Below, in pieces: positions 2,436 to 46,220 of a stretch of DNA of 64,000 nucleotides; within the stretch, counting starts at the first letter, position 1; each line of letters opens with the position of its first letter. The DNA comes from Rhizophagus irregularis. Lineage: Eukaryota. A model generated the notes under the pieces. That model was not told where the DNA came from, searched no databases, and saw only the letters and a program-made list of their open reading frames with translations. The translations under genes were made by a program, and so were the position numbers. The stretch is from positions 4,836,001 through 4,900,000 of the forward strand of contig NC_089435.1 of assembly GCF_026210795.1 (NCBI RefSeq). The letters run 5' to 3'.

Positions 2436-4313
2436 ATGAAAAATTTTATTTTGAAATTCGTGATTTTTATAATTTTACTTCATTTTATACTTGAAGTAAA
2501 CACTCAAGTTCCACCTGATGCCGGAACAACGCCTGCCGATGGAAAAGCACCTGCTGATGGTAAAGCGCCTGCGGATGGAAAAGCGCCTGTTGATGGAAAA
2601 GCACCGGCTGACGGAAAAGCGCCCGCTGATGGGAAAGCACCTGCTGATGGTAAAGCGCCTGCGGATGGAAAAGCGCCTGTTGATGGAAAAGCACCGGCTG
2701 ACGGAAAAGCGCCCGCTGCACCTGCTGATGGGAAAGCTCCAGCCGATGGTAAAGCTCCAGCCGATGGAAAAGCTCCAGCTGATGGAAAAGCTCCAGCTGA
2801 TGGAAAAGCACCTGATGATGGAAAAGCTCCAGCTGATGGAAAAGCGCCCGCTGATGGTAAAGCACCTGCTGATGGTAAAGCGCCTGCGGATGGAAAAGCG
2901 CCTGTTGATGGAAAAGCACCGGCTGACGGAAAAGCGCCCGCTGATGGTAAAGCACCTGCTGATGGGAAAGCTCCAGCCGATGGTAAAGCGCCCGCTGATG
3001 GTAAAGCACCTGCTGATGGAAAAGCTCCAGCCGATGGAAAAGCTCCAGCTGATGGAAAAGCGCCTGTTGATGGAAAAGCACCGGCTGACGGAAAAGCGCC
3101 CGCTGATGGTAAAGCACCTGCTGATGGGAAAGCTCCAGCCGATGGTAAAGCTCCAGCCGATGGTAAAGCTCCAGCCGATGGAAAAGCTCCAGAAGATGGA
3201 AAAGCACCTGCTGATGGAAAAGCTCCAGCTGATGGAAAAGCCCCAGCTGATGGAAAAGCCCCAGCTGATGGAAAAGCCCCAGCTAATGGAAAAGCTCCAG
3301 CTGACGGTAAAGCACCTGCTGATGGAAAAGCCCCAGAAAATGGAAAAGCTCCAGAAGATGGTAAAGCTCCAGCTGACGGTAAAGCACCTGCTGATGGTAA
3401 AGCACCTGTTGATGGTAAAGCACCTGTTGATGGAAAAGCTCCAGCTGATGGAAAAGCGCCTGTTGATGGAAAAGCGCCTGCCGATGGAAAAGCTCCAGCT
3501 GACGGTAAAGCTCCAGAAGATGGAAAAGCACCTGCTGATGGAAAAGCGCCAGAAGATGGAAAAGCGCCTGTTGATGGAAAAGCGCCTGCTGATGGAAAAG
3601 CACCAGTTGATGGAAAAGCTCCAGCTGATGGGAAAGCACCTGCTGATGGAAAAGCTCCAGCCGATGGAAAAGCGCCTGTTGCCGGAAAAGCACCTGATGA
3701 TGGAAAAGCGCCTGTTGATGGAAAAGCTCCAGCCGATAGAAAAGCACCTGCTGATGGAAAATTACCAGGTGCTGGGAAGGTGCCCGATTCTGGAAAGGTA
3801 CCTGATGTTGGAAAAGTACCAACTGGTGAAGGAAAATCAAAAGCAGAAACCAATGTAGAAGGAACTAAATCTACAAATGATATAGTTGTTGGAGGGATAG
3901 TTGGTGGTCTTGTTTTGATTGTTTTAACTGCTTTTTGTTTCTATTTAGTGAGAATTTATAAAAATAAAAGAGCAACTAAAGCAACTGATACAAATAATGA
4001 AGTAATTTTAAATCAAGGACAAGAATTTTTGCCAAGTTTTGAAAATCAACTGAAAAATCCCGGAAGAACGTATGATAACATGTTACCAACAGTTAATCCA
4101 TCATCTACGAAATTATTAAATTTAAATAAAGGGCAAGAATTCACACAATTGAACTTTGAAAATAATTCAATTAAACCTAGGAATCAAGGACAAGAATTCA
4201 CACAATTGAACTTTGAAAATGATTCAATTAAACCTAGGAATCAAGGACAAGAATTCAGACCTACACTCCCCGGTAAAAAGTATCCGACCACCCTAAAAAT
4301 TAAAAAATCTTAA
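2436..4313 (+). CDS. Type-I membrane protein: signal peptide, about 68 APADGK repeats, TM helix, NQGQEF-repeat cytoplasmic tail
   Basis: 625-aa ORF. Hydrophobic N-terminus ending EVNTQ, hexapeptide repeat, TM IVVGGIVGGLVLIVLTAFCFYLV followed by basic RIYKNKR, and four N(Q/K)GQEF motifs. The last ~15 codons come from an inserted MITE. Confidence 0.9.
   Translation: MKNFILKFVIFIILLHFILEVNTQVPPDAGTTPADGKAPADGKAPADGKAPVDGKAPADGKAPADGKAPADGKAPADGKAPVDGKAPADGKAPAAPADGKAPADGKAPADGKAPADGKAPADGKAPDDGKAPADGKAPADGKAPADGKAPADGKAPVDGKAPADGKAPADGKAPADGKAPADGKAPADGKAPADGKAPADGKAPADGKAPVDGKAPADGKAPADGKAPADGKAPADGKAPADGKAPADGKAPEDGKAPADGKAPADGKAPADGKAPADGKAPANGKAPADGKAPADGKAPENGKAPEDGKAPADGKAPADGKAPVDGKAPVDGKAPADGKAPVDGKAPADGKAPADGKAPEDGKAPADGKAPEDGKAPVDGKAPADGKAPVDGKAPADGKAPADGKAPADGKAPVAGKAPDDGKAPVDGKAPADRKAPADGKLPGAGKVPDSGKVPDVGKVPTGEGKSKAETNVEGTKSTNDIVVGGIVGGLVLIVLTAFCFYLVRIYKNKRATKATDTNNEVILNQGQEFLPSFENQLKNPGRTYDNMLPTVNPSSTKLLNLNKGQEFTQLNFENNSIKPRNQGQEFTQLNFENDSIKPRNQGQEFRPTLPGKKYPTTLKIKKS
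2530..3760 (+). repeat. 18-bp coding minisatellite (GCNCCNGCNGAYGGNAAA) encoding APADGK
   Basis: Tandem units vary mostly at third codon positions, which supports selection on the + frame of 2436..4313. Confidence 0.95.
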
Positions 4314-4962
4314 AAAATTCAGTGGGCCCAACAATAAATTTATATTTATTTTAAAAGTTTGAGACATGAGACACTTTTTAAAAGTGTTTTTTTAGCTTAA
4401 TTATTAGTAAAAATTCGCGGACATTTTTAATTCTAAAAATGGCAAAATTCTTAACTTTTTAACTAGAGCAGTTACGGCCAAATGAATTCCAGAAATCAAT
4501 TCTTTAACTAAAAAATAGCTTATGTTTAAAAAATCAGAAAGATTGGACTGGTAGTTGCCGAAAAATCCACCACTGAAGATCATAATTTTTATATGTAAAA
4601 ACGGTAAAATCACCATTTTTGCCAAATTTTAGTATAAAAATTATGATCTTCAGTGGTGGATTTTTCGGCAACTACCAGTCCAATCTTTCTGATTTTTTAA
4701 ACATAAGCTATTTTTTAGTCAAAGAATTGATTTCTGGAATTCATTTGGCCGTAACTGCTCTAGTTAAAAAGTTAAGAATTTTGCCATTTTTAGAATTAAA
4801 AATGTCCGCGAATTTTTACTAATAATTAAGCTAAAAAAACACTTTTAAAAAGTGTCTCATGTCTCAAACTTTTAAAATAAATATAAATTTATTGTTGGGC
4901 CCACTGAATTTTTTAAGATTTTTTAATTTTTAGGGTGGTCGGATACTTTTTACCGGGGAGTG
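4264..4962. mobile_element. Palindromic Tc1/mariner-type MITE (about 330-bp arms, TA TSD)
   Basis: ta|CACTCCCCGGTAAAAAG...CTTTTTACCGGGGAGTG|ta. Arms are nearly identical around a ~40-bp spacer near 4594-4634. Confidence 0.92.
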
Positions 4963-6961
4963 TACATATTATTACTGAGGAACTTATATCGGATACGAGC
5001 CATTTTCACACTCTAACACATTTGGCTATGCTATATTTTCATTGTTTAATATGGAGAGGGTAATAACGATAATAATTAAAAATCTTTTCTTTCTTATATT
5101 GATAAGATTAAGAAATAATTAATTGTATATATATAATGAGAGAATTTTTAATTCTTAATAGATTTATAGATGTCAACTAAATTTGACTAATGAATTCGGA
5201 ATTAAAGTTAATGAATTTTAATAGTCTGCTAAAACCCGAGATTAATGATAAGTACGATTAAAATACGACTATCTTAACAAGAATTAATAGATTTGGTAAA
5301 TAGTGTTATAACTCCAAATATAACTGAAGTTTATATCAACTTAATAAAGAATTTTCATAAACAGAAAGGTAATAAATAATATTAAGAAAATAATTTAGAG
5401 ATTCATAGTTATAAAGAAATTTAATAGCAAAGTAATATAATATGCTAAAACTATGATGTTGGCAATTTGGGTTTATGATTTTTAGTTTTTAAAATCTGTT
5501 AAAACTTATCATTTAATTAACATATTTATTCTTTGATAACCGATTGGTGACTCCGTGACTGATGACCTGTGTTAATTGTATGAATCACAATAATCTCAAT
5601 ATTTCAAGTTTTATAAAAATCTCGCGGTCTGTCTAGATTTTTACTATATAGGATAAGCAAGAATTTGAAGTAAAACTTGATGGAGACAATTTTTCATTGT
5701 TATTTTATTAATTTGTTAATTCTTATTAAGGATTTTTTGCGTTCATTTTATCAAATTTTATATTATCCTCTATTTCAAAGTCACGAGTTGAGTAAAAATT
5801 TTTGTTATTATAAATTTATAATAGCTATGATAAACTGATAATAGAGCAAAATGAGAGTGAAGTGAAGTGTTTTTACATGAATAAATTAATAGAATTTTAG
5901 TTGACTTTAAAATTAGAGAAAGGGAATTATACAATTTAACAAAATTACATAAAAAAAATTAATCTCACTTTTAATTTTTAAATTCAAAAAGATATACATA
6001 TTATATTTAACATTAAATATCTTTATGAAGTAACATGCAACTATTATTCAACCGTATAGTTACGCAAGTTGTAGTAATGGTTGCTATCGCACTATTATAA
6101 TTGTGATTCCATTATTCCATTTCAAAGGTTACCGTATTTTGCGGGCCACAGTACCACCCCAAAGAACTTCCATTTTCTACCGATTTTATTATTTAAAATA
6201 ATTTAATAAATAACCCAATTGTTTATACATTATCTACTAATAATAAAAACTCACGCAATGGCAGGTCAAAACCTCTGAAATTTGTATCATTGAATTTTTA
6301 TATTTTAAAAGAATTTCTAGTAATATGATTTTGTGCTCTTCTATTTAGTTAAAAAAGGATATCATTAACACTAATGATGTTAAATAGAAAGTTAAATAAA
6401 TAATAATTATTAAATAATCACTATACCTTCTGTTGCATTTTATGGTTCAGGTAAATTTCAAATTTATGAGTTTTACTTTTAAATGATTTACTGCTCGTGT
6501 TATTGTTTATTTCATTATCTATTTTTATTATTGATTGAGGTAATTCATTTGTTTATTTTGATAATATAATTTAATTTCTCTTATTTTTTCCAAAAGTATA
6601 ACAATGTTAGGTCTTTCTAATAGATTGGCATTCCAGCATTGTTCCATACCCGGATACTATGGCCCCCGTTATACGATAATAAGTAATTATAAATTGATTA
6701 TTTCGAAATTATATTCATATATTATTGATTGCAAAAAAAATTGGATTTATTTATTAAATTAATTTTTTGTGTAATAAATAATCTTTCTTAAAAAAAAAAA
6801 AGTGTTTCTACCTGAACTGAAATCGCATAAAATTTGTTAAAATTGTATAAATAATAATAATTTAACTAGCAATTACCAAAAGGATTTTCTAAAAAAGAAC
6901 CACCGAAAGAAGTCTAGTGTTCAGACCCGGGTTCTTAACGGGTAAACGGGTTGACCCATTA

Positions 6962-7728
6962 CAGCAAAATTCGAAATATAGTGGACACTTGAAAATTTTG
7001 ATTGTAGGGATTGTCGGGTACTCAGGTTACTCGGCTAGTGGGTTATTAGACAGAGTACTATATATGATGGCGTGGTAATTGTATATACTATATAATGTAA
7101 TTATGTTATATTAAAATTTAATTAAATATACCCGTGTTATTTTCTTTTGATTTTTTGTATGATGCCAAAATCAATACTAAATAAGCATTAACAGTTGAAA
7201 GGATTTTGAAAGGCTTATCATATAGAGAAGTATACATTTTTGACAAATATTTACATCATTTTGAGTTGGTAAAAGTTCGAAATATTAGCAAAAACCCAGT
7301 CAACAAATTCCGAGTCCAACACAACTTTTTGGTTTGTGGCACCTTTTTGTGTGAGGGGTCTGTGAACAAATTCTACTGCATAATTACGTTTAGCTTTTTT
7401 CCTCTTCCATATTACTTCTCTTGCTTGACAAGTGCATTTTTGATCATATGTGTTTTGACAATCTAAGCAAATAAGACAAATTGGACAGGCATTCAAACAA
7501 AATTCCAAAGAAAATGTCATTGTTCAATAAAAATCAAATAAAGTAATATTGTTGAAAAAAAGTTTAATTTATTAATTTATGTTATATTTGATATGTTTAC
7601 ATATTATACTCTATTATACTTTATACTACGCCATCATATATATATATGTCACGTGTTATATGTCTTTTCATAACGACAATCCCGACAATCACAATTTTCA
7701 AGTGTCCACTATATTTCGAATTTTGCTG
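6962..7728. mobile_element. Tc1/mariner-type MITE, TA TSD
   Basis: ta|CAGCAAAATTCGAAATATAGTGGACACTTGAAAATT...AATTTTCAAGTGTCCACTATATTTCGAATTTTGCTG|ta. Confidence 0.88.
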
Positions 7729-7781
7729 TAAAATTTAAAACCGTAAACCCGATATTAACGGATATCCGTTATAACTCGTTA

Positions 7782-8162
7782 TAGAGGTTGGAACCGACCA
7801 AAAAACCCTTAATCGATTAATAATCGATTAACCAAGGGCCCTAATCGATTAATAATCGATTAATATTAAAATATTAAAAAAATTTTTTTTTTGACCGCAG
7901 ATTGCACCAAATTGTTTTTGATCATACATTTAGTAATAGGAAAGTCTTATTTATTATTATTATCATTAAAAAATTAATACAAATTCTTCCAAGTTCGGAG
8001 AACACGTGACCAAAAATCCACAGCTCTGGGGCGCATTAGATAATTTGACCAGAATTATGGGTTGATAATTTTAATCGATTAACCGATTTTTGAGATACCT
8101 TAATCGATTAACCGTCTTAGTCGATTAATTAATCGATTAACCTTAATCGATTCCAAACTCTA
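7782..8162. mobile_element. hAT MITE, 8-bp TSD ACTCGTTA
   Basis: actcgtta|TAGAGGTTGGAA...TTCCAAACTCTA|actcgtta, with many TAATCGATTA subterminal palindromes. Confidence 0.9.
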
Positions 8163-9205
8163 ACTCGTTATAATAACGGGTTACGGGTCTGAAGTCTAAA
8201 CACTACTCTAAATGCACCCTCTAGTAGTTCAGTCCAAAGCTTATATAATCTCTAATTATTTTACTTCTATAAATGCACACCCTCTCTAAATGCACTATTT
8301 TGAAAATTATGCATATGGTCCAAGGGGTGCAATTATAAAGGTCTGACTGTAGTCCTTTTGTGAGTCTTTAGTGGTGATACTTTTGGTAGTAGCAGTTCTA
8401 TTTTAAAGAGGGTATACATAGTAGGTGCAATTATGGAGAGTGCAATTATAGATGTCTGACTGTATTACCAAAGCACTACTAAAAGAATCAGCAACAATAA
8501 CATCAGTAACATCACTGGGACCAGTAAAAACTCCGGAAAGTATGACATTTTCACCAGTTAGTAAGTCTAATAATGTTATTTTATATTAGTTGCTTTATAT
8601 TTCCATAACTACAACTTTTAAAATTAAGAGATTCCGATTTCAAACATAATCGAAAATAGATTTTTAAATGATAAGGAAACATATAATATATTTTTTTATT
8701 ATGAGCAAATAACTGCGTTTAACCGGAGGAAATCTTCTATAAATATAGGGGTCCTTTCAGCGGAGACATATAATAGAAATAAAAAAGAAATGTTGAAGCA
8801 TCCGGTACTATAAAAAAAATTATCAGCAGCTTCTCCAGCAAATTTAAGTCAAGGACGACATAATGAGTAATTCAATAGAAGCTGAATTTGTACAAAACCT
8901 TAAAGAGGAAATTATCAAAGATATTAAACAAGAAATGGCTCAAAGTAGTGAAAGTACAAGTCAATTTAATGTTTCTAGTTCATCAATTAATGTTGATAAA
9001 AAGTATAATAGATTAAATGAAACAAGAAATCCTAAAAGCAAGAATTAAGACAACATATCAGAGGTAATAGTAGTAATGATTAAAAAACAACTGAATTTGG
9101 TTATATGTCATTTTGTCCATGATGGTTTATTTTAAATTAGACATAATAATAAATGTTCAAAGTTAAATATTTTTTGAAATTCATTAATCTTTTTTAAGAT
9201 ACTAG

Positions 9206-9585: not shown

Positions 9586-12181
9586 TTAATCTTGTCTTGT
9601 ATTATTTTTTATATTATTATAACTCTCCTGCCTAACAACTTTAAGAATCTCATTTCTCAAATTTTGATTAATTTCTTGTTTGACAGCTTGAAGCATTTCA
9701 TCTTTAAAAGCTTGTAATGATAACCTTTCATCATTATAATTACTAACTACTGCTGGAGCTGAAATTGTTGGTTCATGATTAGTTATATTTACATTATTTT
9801 CATTTTCGGGTGTTTGCATAATTGCTTGCCCATGGTCATTAGCTGGAATTATTGTTGGTTCATGATTGGTTGTATTTTCATGATGATCATTAGCTGGAAT
9901 TATTGTTGGTTCATGATTGGTTGTATTTTCATTTTCGGGCGTTAGAATAATTTCTTGCCCATGATGATCATTAGCTGGAATTATTGTGGTTGTATTTTCA
10001 TTTCTAGGTATTTGAATAATTTCTTGCCCATTATTATTATTGATCACTTGTTCATAATTATGAATATCCCTTATGATAGGAAGCTCCTTTTCTTCTTGAC
10101 CATAATCATTGTAATTTTCATTTCCATGTATAGTACTTTGTTCTCGTTTATTTTTATTCCATTTGTATATCAAGAAACTTCCAACTGATAATAAAATACC
10201 ACCTAATAAAGTTCCCAAAACTGCACCAGTTGTATTGCTTAGATTATTTGATGGTAATGGTAATGGTGAAGGTGAAGGTGAAGGTGAAGGTGAAGGTGGT
10301 GGTGAAAGTGTTGATGGTGGTGTCGATGGTGGTGATGATGGTGGTGGTGATGATGGCGGTGGGGATGGCATTTTTGGATCAAACATTGATGTCCATATAT
10401 ATTCTTCATTATTACTGATATCAAGCAATAATATATCACTTTCAACTGTTTTATCATATTCATATCCTATTAAATCAAATTATTTTTTGTTAAAAAATTA
10501 ATTTGCTTAAGAATAATTAATATATTTGAAATATTATATTTACCAAATGATATAACCATATATTTTCCGATCACGTTTGCTTTATGATAAGCTCTAGGCT
10601 TTGGAATTTTTCCAGATATTTTTGGAACATACCAATTAAAATCATTTAAATCTAATACATAAAGTGAAGTATCTAAATATCCGGGATTATTAAAAATTCC
10701 TCCATAAATTATAATTCTCTGACCATCCAAACCTGTTAAATAATTGCATTTATCATTAATATTTTCTTTTTAATATTAATTATAATATTCTCATAATTCA
10801 TACCAAGAATGGCGGAAAAGCCACCTCTATTAGAAGGTATTTTTCCTGATGTTATCTAATTTCAGTAATAAAATTAATACACATATTTTATTTTAATAAT
10901 AGTTAATTTAATATTTTTACATAATAATTTGTATAACTTACTTTTGTATCCCAACTGTCATTGATCATATCATATATATAAACCTGTATAAATAATTTTT
11001 AAAATTAATTGATTTTTAGAAAAAAAAATTACATATCACAAAATTTACCTCATTTAATGTTAAAGCGGCACCTTGAATAATATTCAAAGTTTTCCTATCA
11101 AACTTAATAGTATCATCGTTCATACCGCCTAAACAATAAGCGTTCATTAATAAAATAACAGTAATTAAATAACGACTTACTAAAACATCATAGTATGTGA
11201 TTTCAAAAAAATTATAACTTAAACTAAACATGTTGTACTAATTAAAATTGCTCAGCACTCTTGAAAATGGTCAGAAAAAAGAATTTGAATAATACTATTT
11301 TTTTTGTACTAGACCACAGTTATATGATTTATGTATTTTTTATTTGTTACCTAACTTTTTATTCTATATTATTAATAGTCTAGCTGAGCTGATTCTATTA
11401 ATTTAATAATTATATTTCACAAAGTACTTAATGCTGAAGCATATACTTCGCTTAAGTTTTTTGATTTTTTTTTATTTCGCAAATTTGTTGAACACTGCAG
11501 TGTGAAATATAATTTTTGTTAAATAAATATATGTTCATAAAAAATTACTCGCTTACCTATGTAAATAATCTTATTATTGGGTAATAAGGCAGCACCATAA
11601 TTACATCTTGAACTTGGAGCATTAACTATACTTCCCATTTCCCAGTTAAGATTTATTGTGTCTAAAATAAGCATATTGTTTGAAATACCCACATCAATAT
11701 TTCCGCTCCATAAATAAAATTTTCCATTATTATAATTCATAACTCCTGTTAATTCATATTTTATGACCGTGTTAATTCCAGTTATTTTTGGAGGATTCCA
11801 TGCAATGTGTTGTGGGTCAAATGTGTAAACCAATGGCATTTTTGGATCATTCGAAAATCCACCGTATAAAAATAGTGTATTATTGTTTGCTCCACCTTTA
11901 GTTGTTGTTGCAGAATCATGTGGCGGAACCATATTAATATTTGATAAGTCTTGCCATGATAATTCTTGGGTATTGAATGGAACAGAAACATCAAGATAAA
12001 AAAACTCTTTTAATAGTTTTTCGTTTAAATCGGAACCACCCAAAATATACAATTTATCATCAATGAGCGTAGCAGTATGACGATGATGTACAAATGGCTT
12101 AAAAGGCGTCATTTGACAATTTACTTTAACTACTTGAAGTAGTATCCATAATATGAAATAAACTGAAGAATTTCTTGACAT
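9586..12181 (-). CDS. Intact 6-exon Kelch (galactose-oxidase-like beta-propeller) single-pass membrane protein
   Basis: Exons 12181-11557, 11128-11049, 10983-10942, 10855-10804, 10732-10544 and 10466-9586 are joined in frame by GT-AG introns. Signal peptide, Kelch motifs (HTATLIDDKLYILGG, LFLYGG, IIYIGG, IIIYGG), Pro/Ser stalk, TM GAVLGTLLGGILLSVGSFLIY, and a tail with HGQE repeats. Confidence 0.9.
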
Positions 12182-18470: not shown

Positions 18471-19298
18471 ATGAAAAAAATATTCATTTTGATTTTTATG
18501 ATTCTTATTATTTTACTTCAATTTATACATGAAGTAAATACTCAAGCTCCAGCAGATGTACCAGGTCCTCCACCAGAAGGAGCTGTACCATCACCGGCAA
18601 AGGCACCACCAGGAGGAGTTACTCCAGCAGGAACAGCTAGCCCACCACCATCAGCAGCATCAGCAGCATCAGCATCATCTTCAGCATCAGTGTCAGCATC
18701 ATCTTCAGCATCAGCGCCAGTGTCAGCAACTTCTGTAGATTCTTCAATTCCTTCAAATATAATAGCTGCTTCAATTATTGGAGGGATAGTTAGTGGTTTA
18801 ATTTTAATCTTCCTAGTTGGGTTATGCTACTTTTTAGTGAGAATGTATAAAAATAAAAAAGAAAGTTCTAAAGCAATTGCGACTCCTGGGAATGAAAATA
18901 ATAATAATATTTCAAATCCTGGAATCATGAATGATGATTTATATCATAACAAGATGTTACCTATTCCCATAGAATTAGTAATTCCAAATCAAGGACAAGA
19001 ACTTGCACCAAATTATAACAATCAACAAGGAGCAACACGCGAATTAGGAAACAACTCAGTAGATAATGAAACTATTCAAAATATTAGACAAGAAATGGTT
19101 CATAATTTAAGTCAAGATCCAGCAAGAAATTTATCATCATTTAATATCGATGAAGATATTATAAATCAAATGAAACAAGACATTCTACTAGATATTAAAC
19201 AAGAATTGAAGCAGAATATAAGGTCAAAAGTAATGACATCGTTTTATAAAGATAATATTGATGATAATAGTAGTAGTAATAGCAATGTTAATAAATAA
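18471..19298 (+). CDS. Type-I membrane protein with a short Pro/Ala/Ser ectodomain and NQGQE/helical tail
   Basis: 275-aa intronless ORF. Signal peptide ..ILLQFIHEVNTQ, TM IIAASIIGGIVSGLILIFLVGLCYFLV, tail NQGQE and INQMKQDILLDIKQELKQNI. Confidence 0.88.
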   Translation: MKKIFILIFMILIILLQFIHEVNTQAPADVPGPPPEGAVPSPAKAPPGGVTPAGTASPPPSAASAASASSSASVSASSSASAPVSATSVDSSIPSNIIAASIIGGIVSGLILIFLVGLCYFLVRMYKNKKESSKAIATPGNENNNNISNPGIMNDDLYHNKMLPIPIELVIPNQGQELAPNYNNQQGATRELGNNSVDNETIQNIRQEMVHNLSQDPARNLSSFNIDEDIINQMKQDILLDIKQELKQNIRSKVMTSFYKDNIDDNSSSNSNVNK

Positions 19299-21167: not shown

Positions 21168-21939
21168 ATGAAAAAAATATTTATTTTGATTTTTATAATT
21201 TTTATAATCTTACTTCAATTTATACATGAAGTAAATACTCAAGCTCCAGCAGATGTACCAGGTCCTCCACCAGAAGGAGCTGTACCATCACCGGCAAAGG
21301 CACCACCAGGAGGAGTTACTCCAGCAGGAACAGCTAGCCCACCACCATCAGCAGCATCAGCATCATCTTCAGCATCAGCGCCAGTGTCAGCAACTTCTGT
21401 AGATTCTTCAATTCCTTCAAATATAATAGCTGCTTCAATTATTGGAGGGATAGTTAGTGGTTTAATTTTAATCTTCCTAGTTGGGTTATGCTACTTTTTA
21501 GTGAGAATGTATAAAAATAAACAAGAAAATTCTAAAGCAATTACAACCCATGGACTGAATAATGTCAAAAGTAAAAAAAAATATTTCAAATCCTGGAATA
21601 ATGAATGATGAATTATATAATGAACCGATCCCTACAGAATTAATAATTTCGAATCATGGACAAGAATTTATACCAAATTCACCAAATTATAATAATCAAC
21701 AAGGGACAACACGTGAATTAGGAAACAACTCAACAGATAATGAAATTATTCAAAAAATCAGACAAGAAAATTTATCATCAAAATTTAATATTGATGAAAA
21801 TATTATAGATCAAATGAAACAAGATATTCTACAAGACATTAAACAAGAATTAAAACAAAATATTAGATCAAAAGTGATGACATCATTATATAAGGATAAT
21901 AATGATGAAGATAGTGGTAGTAATATAAATGATAAATAA
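21168..21939 (+). CDS. Paralog of 18471..19298 with a +1 frameshift in an A9 run (pseudogene or sequencing error)
   Basis: ORFs 21168..21608 and 21562..21939 together match the whole paralog. Removing one A at about 21573-21581 restores ..SKKNISNPGIMND.. Confidence 0.8.
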
Positions 21940-24458: not shown

Positions 24459-25432
24459 ACTGATTTCAAAGAATCAAAAATTAGAAGATGCAAAATTCAG
24501 TTGATGATTAAAAAATTTCCTTGCGTTGAACAAATTAAAAAAACTTTATTTTCATTATATAAAGAAAGGTTTTGTCCTATGTGTGAAGAGGATGAAGAAA
24601 ATTTCAATCATATCTGGTTTTGTGAAGAAAGACGAGAGGATATAGATGATTTAATTTCAGGAGTACAAAATTGGCTTCTTTTAGAAATTAATAAAATTTT
24701 AGATCCTATTAACAAATTCTTTTTCAAATTGTTTTATCTCCCGCTCTTCTATTAATCATATTACTTTTGAACATATTAAAAATCTCAATGATATTTGGAA
24801 ACTTGAAGTATCAGAGGATCACATAACTTTCATAGATTTAATTAAAGGTTTCTTTCCTTGTTTGTTAATTAATTTTTTTAAACAATTATTATCTACGAAA
24901 TCAAAAGTTGAAATTTTGTCATATAATTTTAGGAATGAAATTTTGGATAAATCTATGATTTTTTGGAAAGTGAGGTGTAATAAACTTAATGAAATTGATA
25001 GAGGTTTGGGAATTGATAAAAATGTTAAAAAACATTTTGGTAAAGAGCAGTTTATTGACAAAACATGTAAATCAAAAAATAAGAAATACTTTAATCTACA
25101 AAGTCTTTAAAGTCATATTTATTTTGGGGTAATACTATAATATTGTTGATTACGGTAGTGTTTCGTAGTATTATTTTTATTATCTTTGATGTTGTAGTAG
25201 TAATTAAAGGAGTTGAGGTGGGTTTATATATAACATTACCGAAGTCCATACGAATAGTAGTAGTTATGCGGATAGTTTAGTGAACCTATTTGGGTGAGCA
25301 GGATGGTAGATAGTTCTTTTGAACATAAAATCTTAAGTCCCTAATAATATTATAGTATAGTTCGATCGTATTCTTTACTAAATGTTATATAATGTAGATC
25401 TTTTCCTTTTTTGTAATTTTTTTTATTTCTAA
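24459..25432 (+). mobile_element. 3' fragment of a non-LTR retrotransposon (CCHC zinc knuckle and 3'UTR); poly(A) lies beyond the foldback insertion at about 32199-32209
   Basis: CPMCEEDEENFNHIWFC is homologous to CPICNIEKEEFNHVWTC of the 58602..62282 ORF, and the 3'UTR is similar. AATAAA plus an A-tract resumes right after 32180. Confidence 0.85.
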
Positions 25433-25814
25433 CACCCAATCCAAATGATCGACATAGTTTATAAGCTGAAACTTCGTGCACAAAACCTCAGCTAAGAAAC
25501 TGCCCATGGGCAGATTTGCCCATGGGATTTGATTGGCTAATACTTAGTTGGTTTATATCGGCTAAATAAAGTAATTCTATAATTTCTGAATGCAGATTTG
25601 CCTATAAACCAGCATGCGAGGATTGCATTGATATAAATTTTGTACTACCTAATAACCAAAAAAAGTCAAAAAAATTTTTAAGGTTACACAGTAATTCTGA
25701 CTGAAGTTGAAATCATTATAGCCAGAATTAAGCTAATTCTGGCCAACCAGTTTCTGTCTAATAATTCGTCCAATTAAATTCCATCAATTCCTTTACCCAA
25801 TGCGCAGTAATTTC

Positions 25815-26760
25815 CGTTTTATATGAACCAATCAAATTTCATCAAATTATTTACCTAATGGACAAAATTGCCCATTTTATATGAACCAATCAAATTTCAT
25901 CAAATCGTTTACCTAATGGACAAAATTGTCCGTTTTTATATGAACCAATCAAATTTCATCAAATCATTTACCTAATGTGCAGTAATTTCTGGCCAAAATT
26001 AAAGTGACCGGCCAGAATTAAGTTAATTTGGCTGAACAAAATTGTCCGTTTTATATGAGCCAATCAAATTTCATCAAATCATGGACAAAATTGTCCATTT
26101 TATATGAGCCAATCAAATTTCATCAAATCATGGACAAAATTGTCCATTTTATATGAGCCAATCAAATTTCATCAATCCGAAGCGGACAAAAATTTCGTCC
26201 GCTTTTATACTTGAGCCAATCAAATTTCATCAAATCATGGACAAAATTGTTCGTTTTATATGAGCCAATCAAATTTCATCAAATCATTTGGAACAAAATT
26301 GTCCGCTTTTATATGAGCCAATCAAATTTCATCAAATCATTGGACAAAATTGTCCTGCTTTTATATGAAGCCAATCAAATTTCATCAAATCAAAGCCGGT
26401 TGGACAAAATTGTCTCTGCTTTTATATGAAAGCCAATCAAATTTCATCAAATCATTGGACAAAATTGTCTGTTTTATATGGGCCAATCTAATTTCAAATT
26501 TCAAATCAAATCGGTAGCTGGGACAATTGTCTGTTTTATATAGCAGCCTAATCGAGAATTTCATCGAATCGTAATCGGACAAAATTGTCCGCTTTTATAT
26601 GAACCAATCAAATTTCAATTTCGCAATTCGACTGCTTTATATAAACCAATCAAATTTCATCAAATCAATGGACAAAATTGTTCGCTTTTATATAAACCAA
26701 TCAAATTTCATCAAATCATTGACAAAATTGTCCATTTTATATAAACCAATCAAATTTCAT
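25815..26760 (+). repeat. About 47-bp tandem repeat in the left foldback arm (mirrored at about 30845-31790)
   Basis: Unit GGACAAAATTGTCCGTTTTATATGAGCCAATCAAATTTCATCAAATCAT, containing CCAAT and a GGACAA/TTGTCC palindrome. Confidence 0.92.
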
Positions 26761-29700
26761 GGGCAGATTTCGCCCATGGGCAGTTTCTTAGCTAAGATTT
26801 TCTGCACAAATCTTCAGCTTATAAACTTTATCATTTAAATCCAACCAATCAAATTTCATGGGCATTCATCCCATGGGCAGTTTCTTAAATGAAATTTTGT
26901 GCAGAAACTTTCAGCTTATAAATTATATTATTTGATCGCAGTCGAATTAAATATAATTCTGGCCAAATCGTTCTATTTATTGCAAAAACTGGTTACCTGC
27001 ATACCATTGAGTACTTTATCACGTGAAGTGGTTCTTGCAACACACACGAGATCTGATTGGTTCATATAACTTACCAACATTTAATTACAAATAAGGCAAT
27101 TTTATAACTTTTGACTGGATATTTATTCTAAACTCAACAGTAAGGATTGCACTAACATACATTTTGTACCACCTTATAACTATAAAAAAGGCAAAAATTT
27201 TTTGAGGTTACACATTAATTTGGCCAGAATTAAGATAATTTCGCCCAGCAAAATTTGGCCAGAATTAAATTTTGGTTAGAATTATAAAAACAGACATTTA
27301 TGTCTGTTTTTGTAAATTTAGTTAGCATTATAAATGTAAATATTATAAATTGCATTAATTTATCATAATCCAGTAAATAGAAAAATCAATTATAACTTAT
27401 TAGCTTTGTCTCATTAAAGCATGTTAAATTGTTAAATAGTGGTATTTATTATCAATAGATGGGTATTTAGAAATATTTAAGAATACTACAAAAAAATTCT
27501 TTTCAAAAAAATGTTAATATCTTATTATTTGTTATTCCTAAAGGTATAAAACTCCTACCATTTAATACATCTCAATACAATCCAACAAGCTGTGTATTAA
27601 TTTGGTATATATATTTAACCAAAAAAATTTTTTTATTGTATTTTTATTGTATTTAAATATAGACATATAAAAAGATATTTATATTATTTTTGTAATTTAT
27701 TTAATATATAATTATAAAATTTTGTAAAGAAAAATATATAAAAATTTATAATTAATATAATTACTATGATTTATTATTTTAATGTATCACATATTTAGGG
27801 AAGTTTACTTTAACATAACATATACAGTATAATTATATTATATTATAAATTATTAATAAAGAAAATATATAAATAAATTTCCAATATATTTACTAATTAT
27901 TATAATTTATTATTTTAATTGCATGAATTTATAATACAATTGCAATTTAACATTTAAAAAATGATTTTTTGTATTTATTTTTTACTAAAAAGCAAATAAA
28001 AAATAAACAAAAAAATTAATGTTTTATTTAAAATAATTTTTAAATAATAATTAAAAGATCTAATTTTCTGACATTTTATTAGATTTAAAAATTATCAGAA
28101 ATTTAAATTCTTCAATTATTAATACATTACATATTTATGAAAGTTAAATAAATATACTTATTTATTAATCTATTTAATGTAATTTAGCAATTAAGTGAAT
28201 TAACATTAGGTTTATTTTAATTTTATTTATTTTTTTTATTGATCCAAATTATTTTAAAAATTGATAGAAAATTAAATGATTTGGCTTTTTTAATTATTAA
28301 TATATTATATATTTATAGAAGTTAAATAAACATACTTATTTAATCTATTTAATGTAATTTAGCAATTAACATTAGTTTATTTTAATTTTATTTATTTTTT
28401 TTTATTTGATCTAAATTATTTAAAAATTGATAAAAACTTAACAGTTAAAGGATTTGGCTCTTAATTATTAATACATTACATATTTATAGAAGTTAAATAA
28501 ACATACATATTTAGTGGAATTTAATTTAAAATTATTTTATTAATATAAACTTAATTTTTGTTTTGTTTTTATTTACAGTATTTATTTATTTATTTATTTT
28601 TATTTATTTTATTAGACACAAATTATATTCAGTACATTTCGCAAATCCAAATTTTTTAATAAATGATTTTGTTGATCCAATTTCTAACAATATTTAAAAT
28701 AATTTGTGTCTAATAAAATAAAATTAATAAATAAATACTGTAAATAAAAACAAAACAAAAATTAAGTTTTATATTAATAAAATAATTTTAAATTAAATTC
28801 CACTAAATAGGTATGTTTATTTAACTTCTATAAATATGTAATGTATTAATAATTAAGAGCCAAATCCTTTAACTGTTAAGTTTCTATCAATTTTTAAATA
28901 ATTTAGATCAAATAAAAAAAAATAAATAAAATTAAAATAAACTAATGTTAATTGCTAAATTACATTAAATAGATTAAATAAGTATGTTTATTTAACTTCT
29001 ATAAATATATAATATATATTAATAATTAAAAAAGCCAAATCATTTAATTTTCTATCAATTTTTAAAATAATTTGGATCAATAAAAAAAAAATTAAAATTA
29101 AAATAAACCTAATGTTAATTCACTTAATTGCTAAATTACATTAAATAGATTAATAAATAAGTATATTTATTTAACTTTCATAAATATGTAATGTATTAAT
29201 AATTGAAGAATTTAAATTTCTGATAATTTTTAAATCTAATAAAATGTCAGAAAATTAGATCTTTTAATTATTATTTAAAAATTATTTTAAATAAAACATT
29301 AATTTTTTTGTTTATTTTTTATTTGCTTTTTAGTAAAAAATAAATACAAAAAATCATTTTTTAAATGTTAAATTGCAATTGTATTATAAATTCATGCAAT
29401 TAAAATAATAAATTATAATAATTAGTAAATATATTGGAAATTTATTTATATATTTTCTTTATTAATAATTTATAATATAATATAATTATACTGTATATGT
29501 TATGTTAAAGTAAACTTCCCTAAATATGATACATTAAAATAATAAATCATAGTAATTATATTAATTATAAATTTTTATATATTTTTCTTTACAAAATTTT
29601 ATAATTATATATTAAATAAATTACAAAAATAATATAAATATCTTTTTATATGTCTATATTTAAATACAATAAAAATACAATAAAAAAATTTTTTTGGTTA

Positions 29701-30188
29701 AATATATATACCAAATTAATACACAGCTTGTTGGATTGTATTGAGATGTATTAAATGGTAGGAGTTTTATACCTTTAGGAATAACAAATAATAAGATATT
29801 AACATTTTTTTGAAAAGAATTTTTTTTTTTTGTAGTATTCTTAAATATTTCTAAATACCCATCTATTGATAATAAATACCACTATTTAACAATTTAACAT
29901 GCTTTAATGAGACAAAGCTAATAAGTTATAATTGATTTTTCTATTTACTGGATTATGATAAATTAATGCAATTTATAATATTTACATTTATAATGCTAAC
30001 TAAATTTACAAAAACAGACATAAATGTCTGTTTTTATAATTCTAACCAAAATTTAATTCTGGCCAAATTTTGCTGGGCGAAATTATCTTAATTCTGGCCA
30101 AATTAATGTGTAACCTCAAAAAATTTTTGCCTTTTTTATAGTTATAAGGTGGTACAAAATGTATGTTAGTGCAATCCTTACTGTTGAG

Positions 30189-30572
30189 TATAGGTGTCGT
30201 CGAAATTAATTACGGATTTTACCACGGTTACGGCACGTGCCGCATTGCCGACCGTAAAAACCGTAAAATTTTATTAAGGCATTAAGTTCGGCCAGAGTTA
30301 AATGATCTTCGCGATAATTTCCTTTTTTGGAATATGGTGTAACCATTGTGTAACTCGATTCTCCATTTTTGATGGGAAGCAAAATTTCCTTTTATGGAAA
30401 TCTGTGTAACGTCACGTGATATAACAACAAAATTCGGCCGGCATTACCGGCATTACCGGCATTATAAACCTATTTACGGCATTACGGATAATTTACGGAT
30501 TTCGCCGAATTAATTACGGTATAGCCGAAATGCCAAAATTGCCGTAATTCATGAATTTCGACGACAAGTATA
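30189..30572. mobile_element. hAT MITE, 8-bp TSD CTGTTGAG, present only in the right foldback arm
   Basis: ctgttgag|TATAGGTGTCGTCGAAATT...AATTTCGACGACAAGTATA|ctgttgag. The empty site is visible in the left arm near 27132-27140. Confidence 0.92.
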
Positions 30573-33500
30573 CTGTTGAGTTTAGAATAAATATCCAGTC
30601 AAAAGTTATAAAATTGCCTTATTTGTAATTAAATGTTGGTAAGTTATATGAACCAATCAGATCTCGTAGTGCGTTGCAAGAACCACTTCACGTGATAAAG
30701 TACTCAATGGTATGCAGGTAACCAGTTTTTGCAATAAATAGAACGATTTGGCCAGAATTATATTTAATTCGGACCGGTGGTCAAACAATATAATTTATAA
30801 GCTGAAAGTTTCTGCACAAAATTTCATTTAAGAAACTGCCCATGAAATTTGATTGGTTTATATAAAATGGACAATTTTTGTCAATGATTTGATGAAATTT
30901 GATTGGTTTATATAAAGCGGACAATTTTGTCCATGATTTGATGAAATTTGATTGGTTTATATAAAGCGGACGAATTTTGATGAATTTTGATTGGCACATA
31001 TAAAAGCGGACAATTTTGTCGTGATTTGATGAAATTTGATTGGCTTATATAAAGCGGACAATTTTGTCCATGATTTGATGAAATTTGATTGGCTCAATAT
31101 AAAGCGGACAATTTTATCCGTTGATTTGATGAAATTTGATTAGGTTCATATAAAACAGACAATTTTGTCATGATTTGATGAAATTTGATTGGCTCATATA
31201 AAATGAACAATTTTGTCATTGATTTGATGAAATTTGATTGGTTTCATATAAATAAAACGGACAATTTTGTCAGCTGATTTGATGAAATTTGATTCGGTAC
31301 CGTATAAACGGACGATTTTGTCAGCTGATTTGATGAAATTTGATTGGCTCATATAAAACGGACAATTTTGTCCATGATTTGATGAAATTTGATTGGCTCA
31401 TATAAACCGGACAATTTTGTCAATGATTTGATGAAATTTGATTGGCTCATATAAACCGGACAATTTTGTCCATGATTTGATGAAATTTGATTGGCTCATA
31501 TAAAATGGACAATTTTGTCTATGATTTGATGAAATTTGATTGGCTCATATAAAACAGACAATTTTGTTCAGCCAAATTAACTTAATTCTGGCCGGTTACT
31601 TTAATTTTGGCCAGAAATTACTGCACATTAGGTAAATGATTTGATGAAATTTGATTGGTTCATATAAAAACGGACAATTTTGTCCATTAGGTAAACGATT
31701 TGATGAAATTTGATTGGTTCATATAAAATGGGCAATTTTGTCCATTAGGTAAATAATTTGATGAAATTTGATTGGTTCATATAAAACAAAAATTACTGCG
31801 CATTGGGTAATAAAGGAATTGATGGAATTTAATTGAACGAATTATTAGACAGAAACTGGTCGGCCAGAATTAGCTTAATTCTGGCTATAATGATTTCAAC
31901 TTCAGTCAGAATTACTGTGTAACCTTAAAATTTTTTTTGACTTTTTTTGGTTATTAGGTAGTACAAATTTATATCAATGCAATCCTCGCATGCTGGTTTA
32001 TAGGCAAATCTGCATTCAGAAATTATAGAATTACTTTATTTAGCCGATATAAACCAACTAAGTATTAGCCAATCAAATCCCATGGGCAAATCTGCCCATG
32101 GGCAGTTTCTTAGCTGAGGTTTTGTGCACGAAGTTTCAGCTTATAAACTATGTCGATCATTTGGATTGGGTGATTTCTAAATAAAGTTGCACTTCGTTAA
32201 AAAAAAAAATATATAATAATATATATTTTGGATAGTATCATACGTATTTGGAGATTTCAGTCGACTGCAGATCGATAATAATGTGAGATATAAGCATATA
32301 GTAAATATTTTCGTTAAAAGATTTACACATATTTGGTACATTATATATTTAAAGAAAAAAATTTATTTCATCATTATATTATTTTCATATTTATCATTAA
32401 ATATAATAAAATAACAATTAACTATTAATTTAATCTTGTATTATTTTTTGTTATTAAAATTCTCCTCTCTAACAGCTTGAAGAATTTCATTTTTCAAATT
32501 TTGGCCAATTTCTTGTTTAATGGCTTGAAGAATTTCTTCTTTTAAAAGTTGTGATGATATCCTATTATTATTAGGATTAGATGTTGAAATTACTTCTTGC
32601 CCATAATTAAAATTATTAGTATTAACTATTGCAGGAGCTGGAATTGTTGGTTCGAATGGTTCGTGATCACTAGTATTTTCATTTTGGAGCGTTTGCATAA
32701 TTTCTTGCCCATGATGACAATCATTGACTGGAATGATTATTGGTTCATGGTTGGTTGTATTTTCATTTTCAGGTGCTAGAATAATTTCTTGCTTATGATA
32801 GTTATTCTTATTAATTATTGGAGGTGGAATTATTATTGGTTCATAGTTGGATATACTTTTATTTCTAGATATTTGGTTAATTTGAATAGTAGCTTCTTGC
32901 TCATTACTATTGATATCTTGTTCATAATTATGAATATTCCTTATGATAGGGAGCTCCTTTTCTTCTTGACTGTAATCATTATTATTATCATTTTCATGAA
33001 TAGTTTTTTGTTTATTTTTATTCCATTTATATATCAAGAAACTTCCAACTGATAATAAAATGCTACTCAATAAAGATCCAACAACTATACCAGCTATATT
33101 GCCTGAATTATTTGGTGGTGATGAAGAAGAAAGTGAAGATGAAGGTGAAGGAGAAGGTACTAGTGAAGGTGGTGGTAATGGTGGCAGTGTTGATGGTGGT
33201 ATTGGTGGTGGTGGCGATGGCATTTTTGGATCAAATATCGTTGTCCATATATATTCCTCATTATTACTAATATCAAGCAATAATATATCACTTTCAACTG
33301 TTTTATCATAACCAACTCCTATTAAATCAAATTGTTTTTGTTAAAACTAGTTAATTTGCTTAAGTAATAGTAAGGAGTATTATATTTACCAAATGATACA
33401 ACCATATATTTTCCAATTACATCTGCTTTATGAAAAACTCTAGGTCTTGGGATTTTCCCAGAAATTTTTGGAATGTACCAATTATAATTAGCTAAATCTA

Positions 33501-43610: not shown

Positions 43611-44588
43611 TCCGATTGGCATCAATCAGATGTGCTGATTTGTAATGTCAGTCGATTTTGGTCTGATTTTTAGCTGATTTTCCATATGTCTGATTTTTTT
43701 GATTTCGACTAGTAATAAGCATTTCACCTCCACCCCATAAATACATCCTTCCGTCGTTATTAATAATGCCTGTTAAACTCCATTTTCTAATTGCATTAAC
43801 TCCAGCTATTTTTGGAATACTTCACACAACACTTTGTGAATCAAATGCATATACCAATGCCATTGTTTGATCAGTTGTGAGTCCTCTGTATAAAAATAGT
43901 GTATCATTATTTGGACCACCTTTAACTGATATTGCAGAAGAATGAGGTGGAACCATATTAATATTTGATAAATCTTGCCATGATAATTCTTGAGTATTAA
44001 ATGGTACAGAAACATCAAGGTAAAAAAATTCATTTATTTGTTTTTTGTTTAAATCATATCCATCCAAAATATATAATTTATTATCAATGAGTGTAGCAGT
44101 ATGACGACTATATACATTTGGTTTAAAGGGCGTCATTTGACAATTTACTTTAACCAATGCTTGAAGTAATATCCATAATATGAAATAAACCAAAGGATTT
44201 CTTGACATAATCGTAATTTATTTAATAGTAGAAATGAATAATATTAATATTTAAGAAAAAATATTTATTCACTTTTTAAAAAAAGAATTTTACGGTATTT
44301 AAATTTTTAGCATTACACTTAGCAAAAACATGGTTGCATAGAACGGATTATAATATTCAAGTATTTATTTTTCACAACAATATAATTAATGCACACCCAC
44401 ATACCCTATGCAAATTTATTAGCACAATTTCCATATGTGTTGCATAAAATCATAAGATAATGATTCAATAATGCTAAAACGTTACCCAAATAATTAAATT
44501 AATTTTTTGGCTTGAAAATACGCTGTGCAAAAAAGATGATCCAATAAGAAATAAATTGTTACGATGTTTGTGATCAACAATTAATTAA

Positions 44589-44839
44589 CCCTCATATCAA
44601 ATAATTCGATAGATTTTTTTGTGCCAAAATGATGATCATATCCTGGAATGCATTAGATCATTGACAATCATATCTTAAAATGAAGAATGATGAAAAATTG
44701 TGAAAAATTGTGCGTTTTTATGGATTAGTTAATGCATTTTTATGGATTAGATTTTGCATTTAATTTAACCATAAGTCCAAATTTGGATGAAAAAGTCAGA
44801 TAATTTTATATATATGTTAGTATAGCGAAGCTAACGTTT
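44589..44839 (+). mobile_element. Terminus of a TTAA-CCCT (piggyBac-like) element, copy 1; LINE target
   Basis: ttaa|CCCTCATATCAAATAATTCGAT..., homologous to 62689-62457 in reverse orientation. Ends at TAGCGAAGCTAACGTTT. Confidence 0.7.
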
Positions 44840-45291
44840 ATTTAAAAATAATTTTATTATAAATAATATTTTTTTAATGAAGGAAAATAATGTTTCAATA
44901 GAATTAGATAAATTGGATATTTCCAATTTGAATAAAATAATAGGTGGGCATGAATTAATTATAAATATAATTACACCAAAAGTTTATATAAAATATTTGA
45001 AACAATTAAGAAAATATAAATTAATGTTTCTAGATCAACTAACTACATTAAAAGGAGATTATTTTTTTAACTTTTTGGCAATTTAAACAACGACGTTTTG
45101 TTGGAAATTTAAGATCAAGTAATATTACCCCAAAAATTTTTTCAATATTAAATGATATTACAATAGAAGATAAATATACGAATTTATTGAAACCACGTTA
45201 TCGGTATAGTAATGTAATTAATAATTTAAAAGGTTACGAATTAATTTCACCAAATGAATGTAAGAAAAAACAATTTATAATGTTTTGGAAT
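44840..45291 (+). mobile_element. 5'-truncated, 3'-deleted fragment of the same LINE as 58266-62456
   Basis: Near-identical (about 3 differences seen) to the reverse complement of about 60411-60861. Confidence 0.92.
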
Positions 45292-46220
45292 ATGTAATAG
45301 CAAAAGGTAAGTGAATTTAATGGATTTAATAATTTTATAATAATATTACTAATATAATACTTTATTTATTTAGATTAATCAATGATTTGGAATTCTTTAA
45401 AATAAGAAACAAGGCTATAGCTCCATTTGTTTATTCACGAATAGTATCTCTTCAAGCTTTTTTATCATTAGGAACCAGGAATCCTCCAATTTCAAATGAA
45501 ATATTCCAATTATTAAACGAAGAAAATTAAGATATTGCATCTTTTGTTTCATTATTTTCTAGAGCTTTTATATTGGCAAATGAAAAATGTGAGAAACATA
45601 TATCTCATCATCCAGCTTTATTATTTTTCAAAGCAATACAATGTTTTGATCCAAGATTTATTCAATCTAATTCATCTAATCATAATATGGAAAATTATAG
45701 AATTATCAAAGAATTTTATCTTCCTACTGATACTTTAATACAAGAATGGGTTATTTACTGTGGACTTAATGAATCTATTGAAGAGTTTGATGATTTGGAT
45801 TTGTATTGGCGAGGTAAAAAGACATATATTACCAGAACTTAGTTCACTGGCTTTAATATATATATGGTTGTGGTGTAAATATTGAACGTAGTTTTTCTAG
45901 TTATAAAAGCATTTTATCAGATAGAAGAGTAGCGCTTAAAGAAGAAAATATTCAAATGCTTAATTTTCTTTATTTTAATCTTAGTAATAATGATGATTAT
46001 AATAATGAATTGATGATTTATGAATAATATAAATGTATAAATTTATTACTTAATTGTAAATAAATAAATAAAATTTGTATAGAATATAAATTATTAAAAA
46101 GTTTTCATAATCGGAATTATGGTAATTCTGGCTGAAATTATGGATCACGATTTTCACGATTTTTGTGATTTTTCACGCCTGATTTTTGGGCCATCACGAC
46201 GTCAAATCCTGGACACCCTA
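45292..46220 (+). mobile_element. 3' part of a hAT transposon (C-terminal dimerisation domain pseudogene plus terminus)
   Basis: DLDLYWRG..PELSSLALIYIWL..NIERSFSSYKSILSDRRVALKEENIQML. Ends GGACACCCTA after TCACGA subterminal repeats. Confidence 0.8.

Follow-up and report, generated by a model that had tools for sequence, protein, structure and literature searches.

Within a 64,000-nucleotide stretch of the Rhizophagus irregularis genome (called the window throughout), the open reading frame at 2436-4313 on the forward strand encodes a protein of 625 amino acids (aa) and is open from its Met through a long array of APADGK-type repeats. Hydropathy revealed only two hydrophobic stretches in this protein, aa 1-26 and aa ~483-505, and the gene and its 3′ end comprise the following features.

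2436-2504, + strand: predicted signal peptide (aa 1-23), from hydropathy and 80-82% DNA identity to the starts of two paralogs
2529-3761, + strand: core zwitterionic array of 68 APADGK-type units (aa 32-442), from repeat finding, protein parse and pN/pS
3762-3881, + strand: four degenerate units and a short linker (aa 443-482), from the protein parse
3882-3950, + strand: predicted single transmembrane helix (aa 483-505), from a hydropathy peak of 2.67 and 75-76% DNA identity to the paralog helices
3951-4265, + strand: native predicted cytoplasmic tail (aa 506-610), from repeat finding, motif reading and profile scores
4264-4962, no strand: 699-bp foldback, MITE-like insertion between two TA dinucleotides, from inverted arms, flanks and an empty site

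Tandem Repeats Finder placed an 18-nt unit in 67.8 copies at 2532-3761, and parsing of the protein gave 72 Lys-ending units at aa 32-467 (the number as assembled), which confirms the about 68 units proposed by an earlier, sequence-only reading. Exact APADGK makes up 47 of the 72 units (46 plain and one within a longer unit), alongside 10 APVDGK, 4 APEDGK, 2 APDDGK and single variants, the last four units being degenerate. The charge balance and near-absence of Ser/Thr noted in that reading also hold, as the 436-aa array contains 75 D+E against 73 K+R and three Ser+Thr, with 61% Pro+Gly+Ala. The whole ectodomain (458 aa) has no Cys and no N-glycosylation sequon. The 67 six-codon units fall into 28 types as DNA and just 9 as protein, and pN/pS was 0.09 among all 67 and 0.14 over the 28 distinct DNA units, values that are descriptive because the units share descent and the comparisons are not independent. 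Variation was mostly at third positions (11 of 18 variant codons synonymous, 7 nonsynonymous), and the 72 units are free of stops and frameshifts. Given the low pN/pS and the third-position variation in the APADGK frame, the array looks to be under selection as protein. Blocks of units recur in a pattern as after internal duplication. Shadow frames over the array (a + strand ORF of 446 aa at 2518-3858 and one on the - strand) were rejected, as third positions of the APADGK frame are where the variation lies, and Pfam matches to Cementoin, DUF1388 and glutenin were set aside as matches to repeat composition.

After removal of the signal peptide the mature protein would start at Gln24, the predicted residue after the cleavage site. 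The predicted helix contains overlapping GxxxG motifs, a dimer motif of helices, and is followed by a basic stretch. Hydropathy thus agrees with the earlier description of a transmembrane helix and a tail of ~115 aa, the tail being 120 aa by the boundary used here. The last 15 residues are hydrophilic (hydropathy -0.97 versus +1.91 for the RiAGL1 record), and the empty-site allele described below likewise has a polar C-terminal stretch and, by hydropathy, no GPI-type end. We compared 8 of 24 listed sequencing runs, all records being assembled contigs and stretches without contig cover not being counted as absence. In four of four runs (X2, X6, X10 and X15) a single contig links the array end (3740/3741), the helix and the tail (to 4163/4194) unspliced; of these runs, only X15 comes with a poly(A) library record, RNA being a guess for X2 and X6 and the kind of X10 being unrecorded, and this evidence for an unspliced transcript is limited by the DNA that RNA libraries can contain. 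Four further RNA runs, including X17 and X20, cover parts of 3790-4242 with no joints. Splicing of the tail to a relic at 8848 was considered because of donor-like sites at 4002, 4070 and 4092 and was rejected, as the contigs pass through these sites with no loose end. The two outcomes that had been named as counting against a transmembrane protein, a GPI end and splicing away of the helix, were therefore not seen, the C-terminus being hydrophilic and the contigs unspliced in all four runs. Overall, we predict a type I single-pass surface protein and infer that it is made and exported.

The 3′ end of the gene is occupied by the foldback element, whose arms at 4262-4609 and 4617-4964 are 98% complementary. 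The insertion encodes residues 611-625 and the stop codon (4311-4313) and carries an AATAAA at 4333, and in its absence the frame ends three Tyr past Thr610; as far as the sequence goes, the last 15 residues of the protein are thus derived from the inserted element. An empty site is present in one contig of the rhizosphere run X20 (depth 3.2), with one TA and 21 of 21 letters as expected, and this site together with the TA pair rules out an assembly artefact as the source of the foldback. The X20 contig parts from the window one 57-nt unit sooner than the insertion site and then shows the empty-site sequence. Among the eight runs, three cross into the element at the insertion site, one has the empty site and four are without cover there. 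Contigs end at 4325 in X2 and at 4324 in X6, just before the AATAAA at 4333, and X10 continues to 4505, which hints weakly at a further role of the element in ending the transcript; the poly(A) site is predicted near 4350, within the element. RNA that reads through the element would fold into a 340-bp hairpin with a computed energy of -549 kcal/mol. Within the 64-kb window the 699-bp element is present in one copy. Like the MITEs defined for R. irregularis in the available text of PMC11075540, it is shorter than 1 kb, has terminal inverted repeats, no transposase and TA flanks, and has an empty site; unlike these, it consists almost entirely of its arms (foldback type). A contig of the poly(A) run X15 covers 5010-5275, with 61 differing letters before 5010, and the X15 allele likely also differs in the 3′ untranslated region.

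Further members of the same architecture lie in the window.

18471-19298, + strand: paralog with the same signal peptide and helix and a tail with a terminal helix, from DNA identity and motif matches
21168-21939, + strand: second paralog, a near-duplicate of the 18471 gene, from DNA identity and reading frames
9586-12181, - strand: Kelch-domain, multi-exon single-pass gene with related helix and tail, from Pfam Kelch matches and exons read by eye
8848-9045, + strand: orphan relic encoding a terminal KQE helix, from a profile score of 24 bits (E 2e-6) and a DNA match to the paralog 3′ ends

To the 18471 and 21168 paralogs, the focal gene is 80-82% identical in signal-peptide DNA and 75-76% in helix DNA, and 23 of 49 residues of the helix block are identical. 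On a five-sequence family profile built without the focal gene, its helix and tail scored 35.1 bits, the best of 500 shuffles reaching 17.7, and on a profile of Kelch-gene tails only they scored 10.3 bits, a score reached by 1 of 500 shuffles. The signal peptide matched those of the two Kelch genes weakly (7.3 and 12.8 bits, 0 of 500 shuffles each, outside the top 15 six-frame rows), and the same comparison with RiAGL1 gave 4.4 bits (2 of 500 shuffles). A tree of the helix block had supports of 53-59 and was without resolution. Judged by these identities and profile scores, the focal gene is a member of an undescribed single-pass family that includes Kelch-domain proteins, and the receptor chassis of the earlier reading is borne out as a signal peptide and helix homologous to this local family, the signal peptide clearly so for the two paralogs and with a weak resemblance for the Kelch genes. 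Both Kelch genes encode a signal peptide and Kelch repeats, together with a Pro-rich stalk, a helix and a tail. In the second of them (44208-32441, - strand), ~9 kb that contain tandem arrays and transposon-like frames separate the first exon from the later ones.

In an alignment of seven segments, chosen for having it, a terminal helix with an invariant KQE is common to both paralogs, both Kelch genes, a 280-aa relative, a Funneliformis protein and the orphan relic. The focal gene is without this helix, with and without the insertion. The tail of the 21168 paralog changes frame after ~21560, which would cut off its terminal helix as in the focal gene. The relic at 8848 may be either the candidate lost 3′ end of the focal gene or a separate pseudogene. 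The terminal helix of the 18471 paralog gave weak VASP-tetramer matches (E 0.048 and 0.001) that were below the cut-off and serve as a lead only, and the tail of this paralog gave nothing usable in ESM Atlas. Two small nested inverted-repeat elements (6936-7754 and 7788-8160, the second read by eye) lie between the focal gene and the relic. Broken pieces of further Kelch-TM copies are found at 16223-15457 and 22826-20249 (both - strand), and a 3.1-kb foldback at 27128-30193, 97% self-complementary, is nested in larger inverted arms (25422-32185) that bear 49-nt tandem arrays. A reverse-transcriptase ORF of 1,226 aa occupies 58602-62282 (- strand), and an inverted, internally deleted copy of parts of it is located at 44585-45292.

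The exact 625-aa protein was absent from a 15-billion-protein collection, in which the protein of the 18471 paralog clusters under an R. irregularis representative, and present in ESM Atlas. Its helix and tail matched none of 608 word-sharing candidates of 343-1094 aa and none of 135 candidates of 30-342 aa, and had one match, an unnamed 280-aa family member, among 1.84 billion representatives, the search that alone covered proteins >1094 aa. In metagenome contigs, a three-unit pattern had no matches and none of 595 stretches was confirmed. A search with aa 1-130 gave seven matches among 7,994 scored proteins, of which five were PADGK-like runs in proteins that belong neither to the AGLs nor to the focal family. 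The seven include Funneliformis caledonium CAG8657698.1, which combines six xDGK units with a signal peptide, a helix and a tail that matches the 18471 paralog (E 1e-9); compared directly with the focal helix and tail, it was no match (E 0.32).

The array raises the question of its relation to the AGLs. The earlier identification of APADGK as an AGL repeat is confirmed for RiAGL1 and RiAGL5, in which, according to the available text of PMC8786786 (Schultz et al. 2022), it is the unit of 11 tandem copies each. The same text describes Rhizophagus AGLs as GPI-anchored proteins of <200 aa with a single intron at the signal-peptide boundary, some AGLs outside Rhizophagus being without a GPI signal. 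In the literature searched, APADGK occurred in this paper only, the word 'transmembrane' is found neither in its text nor in its eight supplements, and a transmembrane AGL is not described in that literature, which largely excludes subscription journals. By design, secretome screens omit transmembrane proteins (available text of PMC5293756), and this may explain why the single-pass family is undescribed. The focal protein shares with AGLs a signal peptide (by hydropathy), a Pro+Gly+Ala content of 61% (threshold >=40%) and the zwitterionic APADGK repeat. It differs in size (625 aa versus <=200 aa), in having no GPI signal by hydropathy and in having no signal-peptide intron, and the AGL exon-1 motif had no matches in the window. 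As size, GPI signal and intron all fail, we do not file the gene as an AGL; on these features it is not a member of that family. Of the transmembrane AGL variant proposed earlier, the AGL-type array, the helix and the lack of a GPI signal stand, and the assignment to the AGLs falls on size, anchor and intron.

AGL-type ectodomains nevertheless appear to recur on the single-pass chassis in at least two genera, as linkers in the paralog and as PADGK repeats in Funneliformis. The short Pro/Ala/Ser ectodomain of the 18471 paralog has two AGL linker motifs, matching the RiAGL3 linker at 12 of 13 and the RiAGL5 linker at 11 of 12 positions; neither was reached in 200,000 shuffles, the motifs having been picked by eye before this shuffling. 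That this paralog and RiAGL1 lie on one scaffold is suggested by their protein records (the RiAGL1 one being collapsed), each of which gives 867,189 bases as the longest contig. The public RiAGL1 record P0010 (POG81850.1) is only 93 aa long and lacks most of the repeat, which illustrates how an array can collapse in annotation.

The codons bear on how the array came to be on this chassis. RiAGL1 repeats use CCA and GAC throughout (available text of PMC8786786), whereas CCA is found in 20, GAC in 7 and the CCA-GAC-GGA pattern in none of the 47 exact focal units, 12 of which fit the RiAGL1/RiAGL5 codon set. The preference for GAT matches that of neighbouring genes (44 versus 5). As the codons differ from those of RiAGL1, a direct recent copy is argued against, and as five of the seven aa 1-130 matches were unrelated proteins with PADGK-like runs, convergence is possible. 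Whatever the function of the protein, the array could have arisen on the chassis by expansion of a Pro/Ala/Gly/Asp/Lys unit rather than by copying from an AGL. Such an independent origin would agree with the codon usage, the local GAT preference, the PADGK-like runs elsewhere and the lack of an AGL intron. We regard it as a real possibility that falls somewhat short of probable, since a quarter of the exact units do fit the AGL codon set (12 of 47), the 18471 paralog carries non-repeat AGL motifs far beyond chance and is perhaps on one scaffold with RiAGL1, and F. mosseae has PADGK runs on other chassis. Of the earlier proposal that an AGL repeat was recruited onto the chassis, the recurrence of AGL-type ectodomains is upheld; direct recruitment of the array from an AGL gene is plausible and no more, its codons differing from those of RiAGL1.

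We next consider what the tail can tell about function. It is Asn-rich, with four xGQEF motifs, a 57-nt internal repeat and one YxxM motif. It had no match in Pfam at the curated cut-off, scored below zero on the profile of the family's terminal KQE helix and, taken alone, reached scores on the family profiles that were also reached by 93, 9 and 12 of 500 shuffles. In ESM Atlas it gave only leads, <0.9, to generic single-pass families, with a model pLDDT of 0.39. Over 3741-4163, from the array end into the tail, X15 has seven differences from the window, six of them nonsynonymous; four of the differences recur in X17 and one in X20, in which the tail is one 57-nt unit shorter. In unconstrained sequence, roughly three quarters of changes are replacements, and six of seven, a small sample of seven changes, would be about at this level. 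The 'signalling-type' tail reporting to the cytoplasm that had been read from the sequence is not supported, in view of the lack of a Pfam domain and of the terminal KQE helix and of the replacement of its end by the insertion, and the six nonsynonymous strain differences argue against conserved signalling. The tail likely does little signalling.

This weighs on the possibility of a wall-stress or contact sensor like yeast Wsc1/Mid2, in which the array would serve as a wall-embedded spring and the signal would be relayed by the tail. The Wsc topology is shared (a long low-complexity ectodomain, one helix and a tail, as given in the available text of PMC9024836), as is the chassis with the Kelch-domain, receptor-like genes, and a GxxxG helix and repeated GQEF motifs would fit a sensor. 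However, the protein has neither the Cys-rich WSC domain nor the Ser/Thr rod (0 Cys, 3 Ser+Thr), the tail alone scores weakly on the family profiles, neither the filled nor the empty-site allele encodes the family's terminal helix, and the tail end varies between samples. A sensor is therefore unlikely and the weaker reading when set beside the tether proposed below. Loss of the terminal helix could also make the protein a decoy or modulator that pairs with full-length family members via the shared helix and damps their signalling. The helix block shared with the paralogs and the presence of the terminal helix in the other aligned members speak for such a role; it presupposes, however, family members that signal or oligomerise, and a decoy would not need a constrained array of 72 units, which leaves this role improbable.

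The replacement changes in helix and tail would also be expected of a fast-turnover accessory copy that is expressed but drifting, with repeat dynamics keeping the array open and homogenised and little present function. The neighbourhood, in which broken copies of family members lie among nested inverted-repeat elements and pieces of transposons, the lack of a close relative of helix and tail in three protein searches, and the strain-specific expanded families near transposons that are described for R. irregularis in the available text of PMC8647823 are all in line with this. Against drift stand the excess of synonymous variant codons (11 versus 7), the 72 units without stop or frameshift, a frame that is open in all alleles seen and the recurrence of the architecture in Funneliformis, so that we consider mere drift quite unlikely.

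With about an even chance of being right, the explanation that we prefer is that the gene encodes a non-releasable AGL-like structural tether, charge-balanced and anchored by a helix rather than a lipid, whose tail has little signalling function. On a Kelch-TM chassis, an AGL-type ectodomain would have replaced the Kelch propeller some time ago, and the array would later have grown by internal duplication. The protein, once made and exported, would expose an unglycosylated, charge-balanced Pro/Gly chain. At 0.31 nm per residue of extended chain, the 436 residues could reach up to ~135 nm when fully extended, into or through the wall. The array might form polyproline-II or elastic chains that self-associate, as (APADGK)5 peptides do, and could co-assemble with GPI-anchored RiAGL1/RiAGL5. 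As the protein would be held by a helix instead of a lipid anchor, phospholipase could not release it. The basis for this tether is composition and published peptide data: (APADGK)5 peptides form PPII helices and self-assemble, as the available text of PMC8786786 states, citing Creasey 2012. The tether is favoured by the protein-level constraint on the array (pN/pS 0.09-0.14), the unit shared with RiAGL1/RiAGL5, the hydrophilic C-terminus and the unspliced contigs. Against it, a disordered chain is far more compact than its contour length, and short tails can signal without a conserved domain, the focal tail keeping four GQEF motifs and one YxxM.

A bolder extension, which we rate as a long shot, is that Glomeraceae have transmembrane AGL readers whose ectodomains copy the GPI-AGL repeat of the same fungus (units of six residues in R. 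irregularis and of eight in Funneliformis). Through co-assembly with the AGL coat of a hypha that matches, such readers would transmit self-recognition or wall strain to the cytoplasm. The focal gene would then be a greatly expanded member, its tail being rewritten by a strain-segregating insertion. Few surface proteins are specific to arbuscular mycorrhizal fungi, and the AGLs belong to these; the unique tail of a helix-anchored AGL-like protein would make it possible to tag or detect it separately from the GPI-anchored AGLs. In at least two genera, shuffling seems to have placed the AGL module on a chassis of receptor-like type, and such a gene would be missed both by secretome screens, which drop transmembrane proteins, and by AGL screens, which look for small proteins. 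If the structural tether does co-assemble with AGLs, it would offer a testable handle on wall mechanics and self-recognition, and the insertion is a natural variant for probing the importance of the tail.

Compared with RiAGL1 and RiAGL5 as given in the available text of PMC8786786, the focal protein is alike in its APADGK unit, its zwitterionic Pro/Gly/Ala-rich chain, its signal peptide and its predicted N-terminal Gln. In contrast, it has 72 units versus 11 each, an ectodomain of 458 aa versus <200 aa, and a helix and tail in place of the GPI signal, and it is without the intron at the signal-peptide boundary and differs in signal peptide and codon usage. F. caledonium CAG8657698.1 (P0012) resembles the focal protein in its signal peptide, its PADGK repeats, its one helix and a tail that belongs to the same family; unlike the focal gene, it has six longer units, mostly of eight residues, and keeps the terminal KQE helix. 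F. mosseae Fumos_AGL5 and Fumos_AGL6 also carry a PADGK-type stalk on a non-AGL protein but have a non-repeat N-terminal region and either a GPI signal or no anchor, and in the portion of the PMC8786786 supplement that covers them neither is described as transmembrane. With yeast Wsc1/Mid2 and single-pass mucins, the focal protein shares type I topology, a long low-complexity ectodomain and a short tail, whereas it has no WSC domain (no Pfam WSC match), no Ser/Thr-rich glycosylated rod and no sequence match to these proteins. Any stiffness of the focal array would need to be provided by Pro and the pairing of charges.
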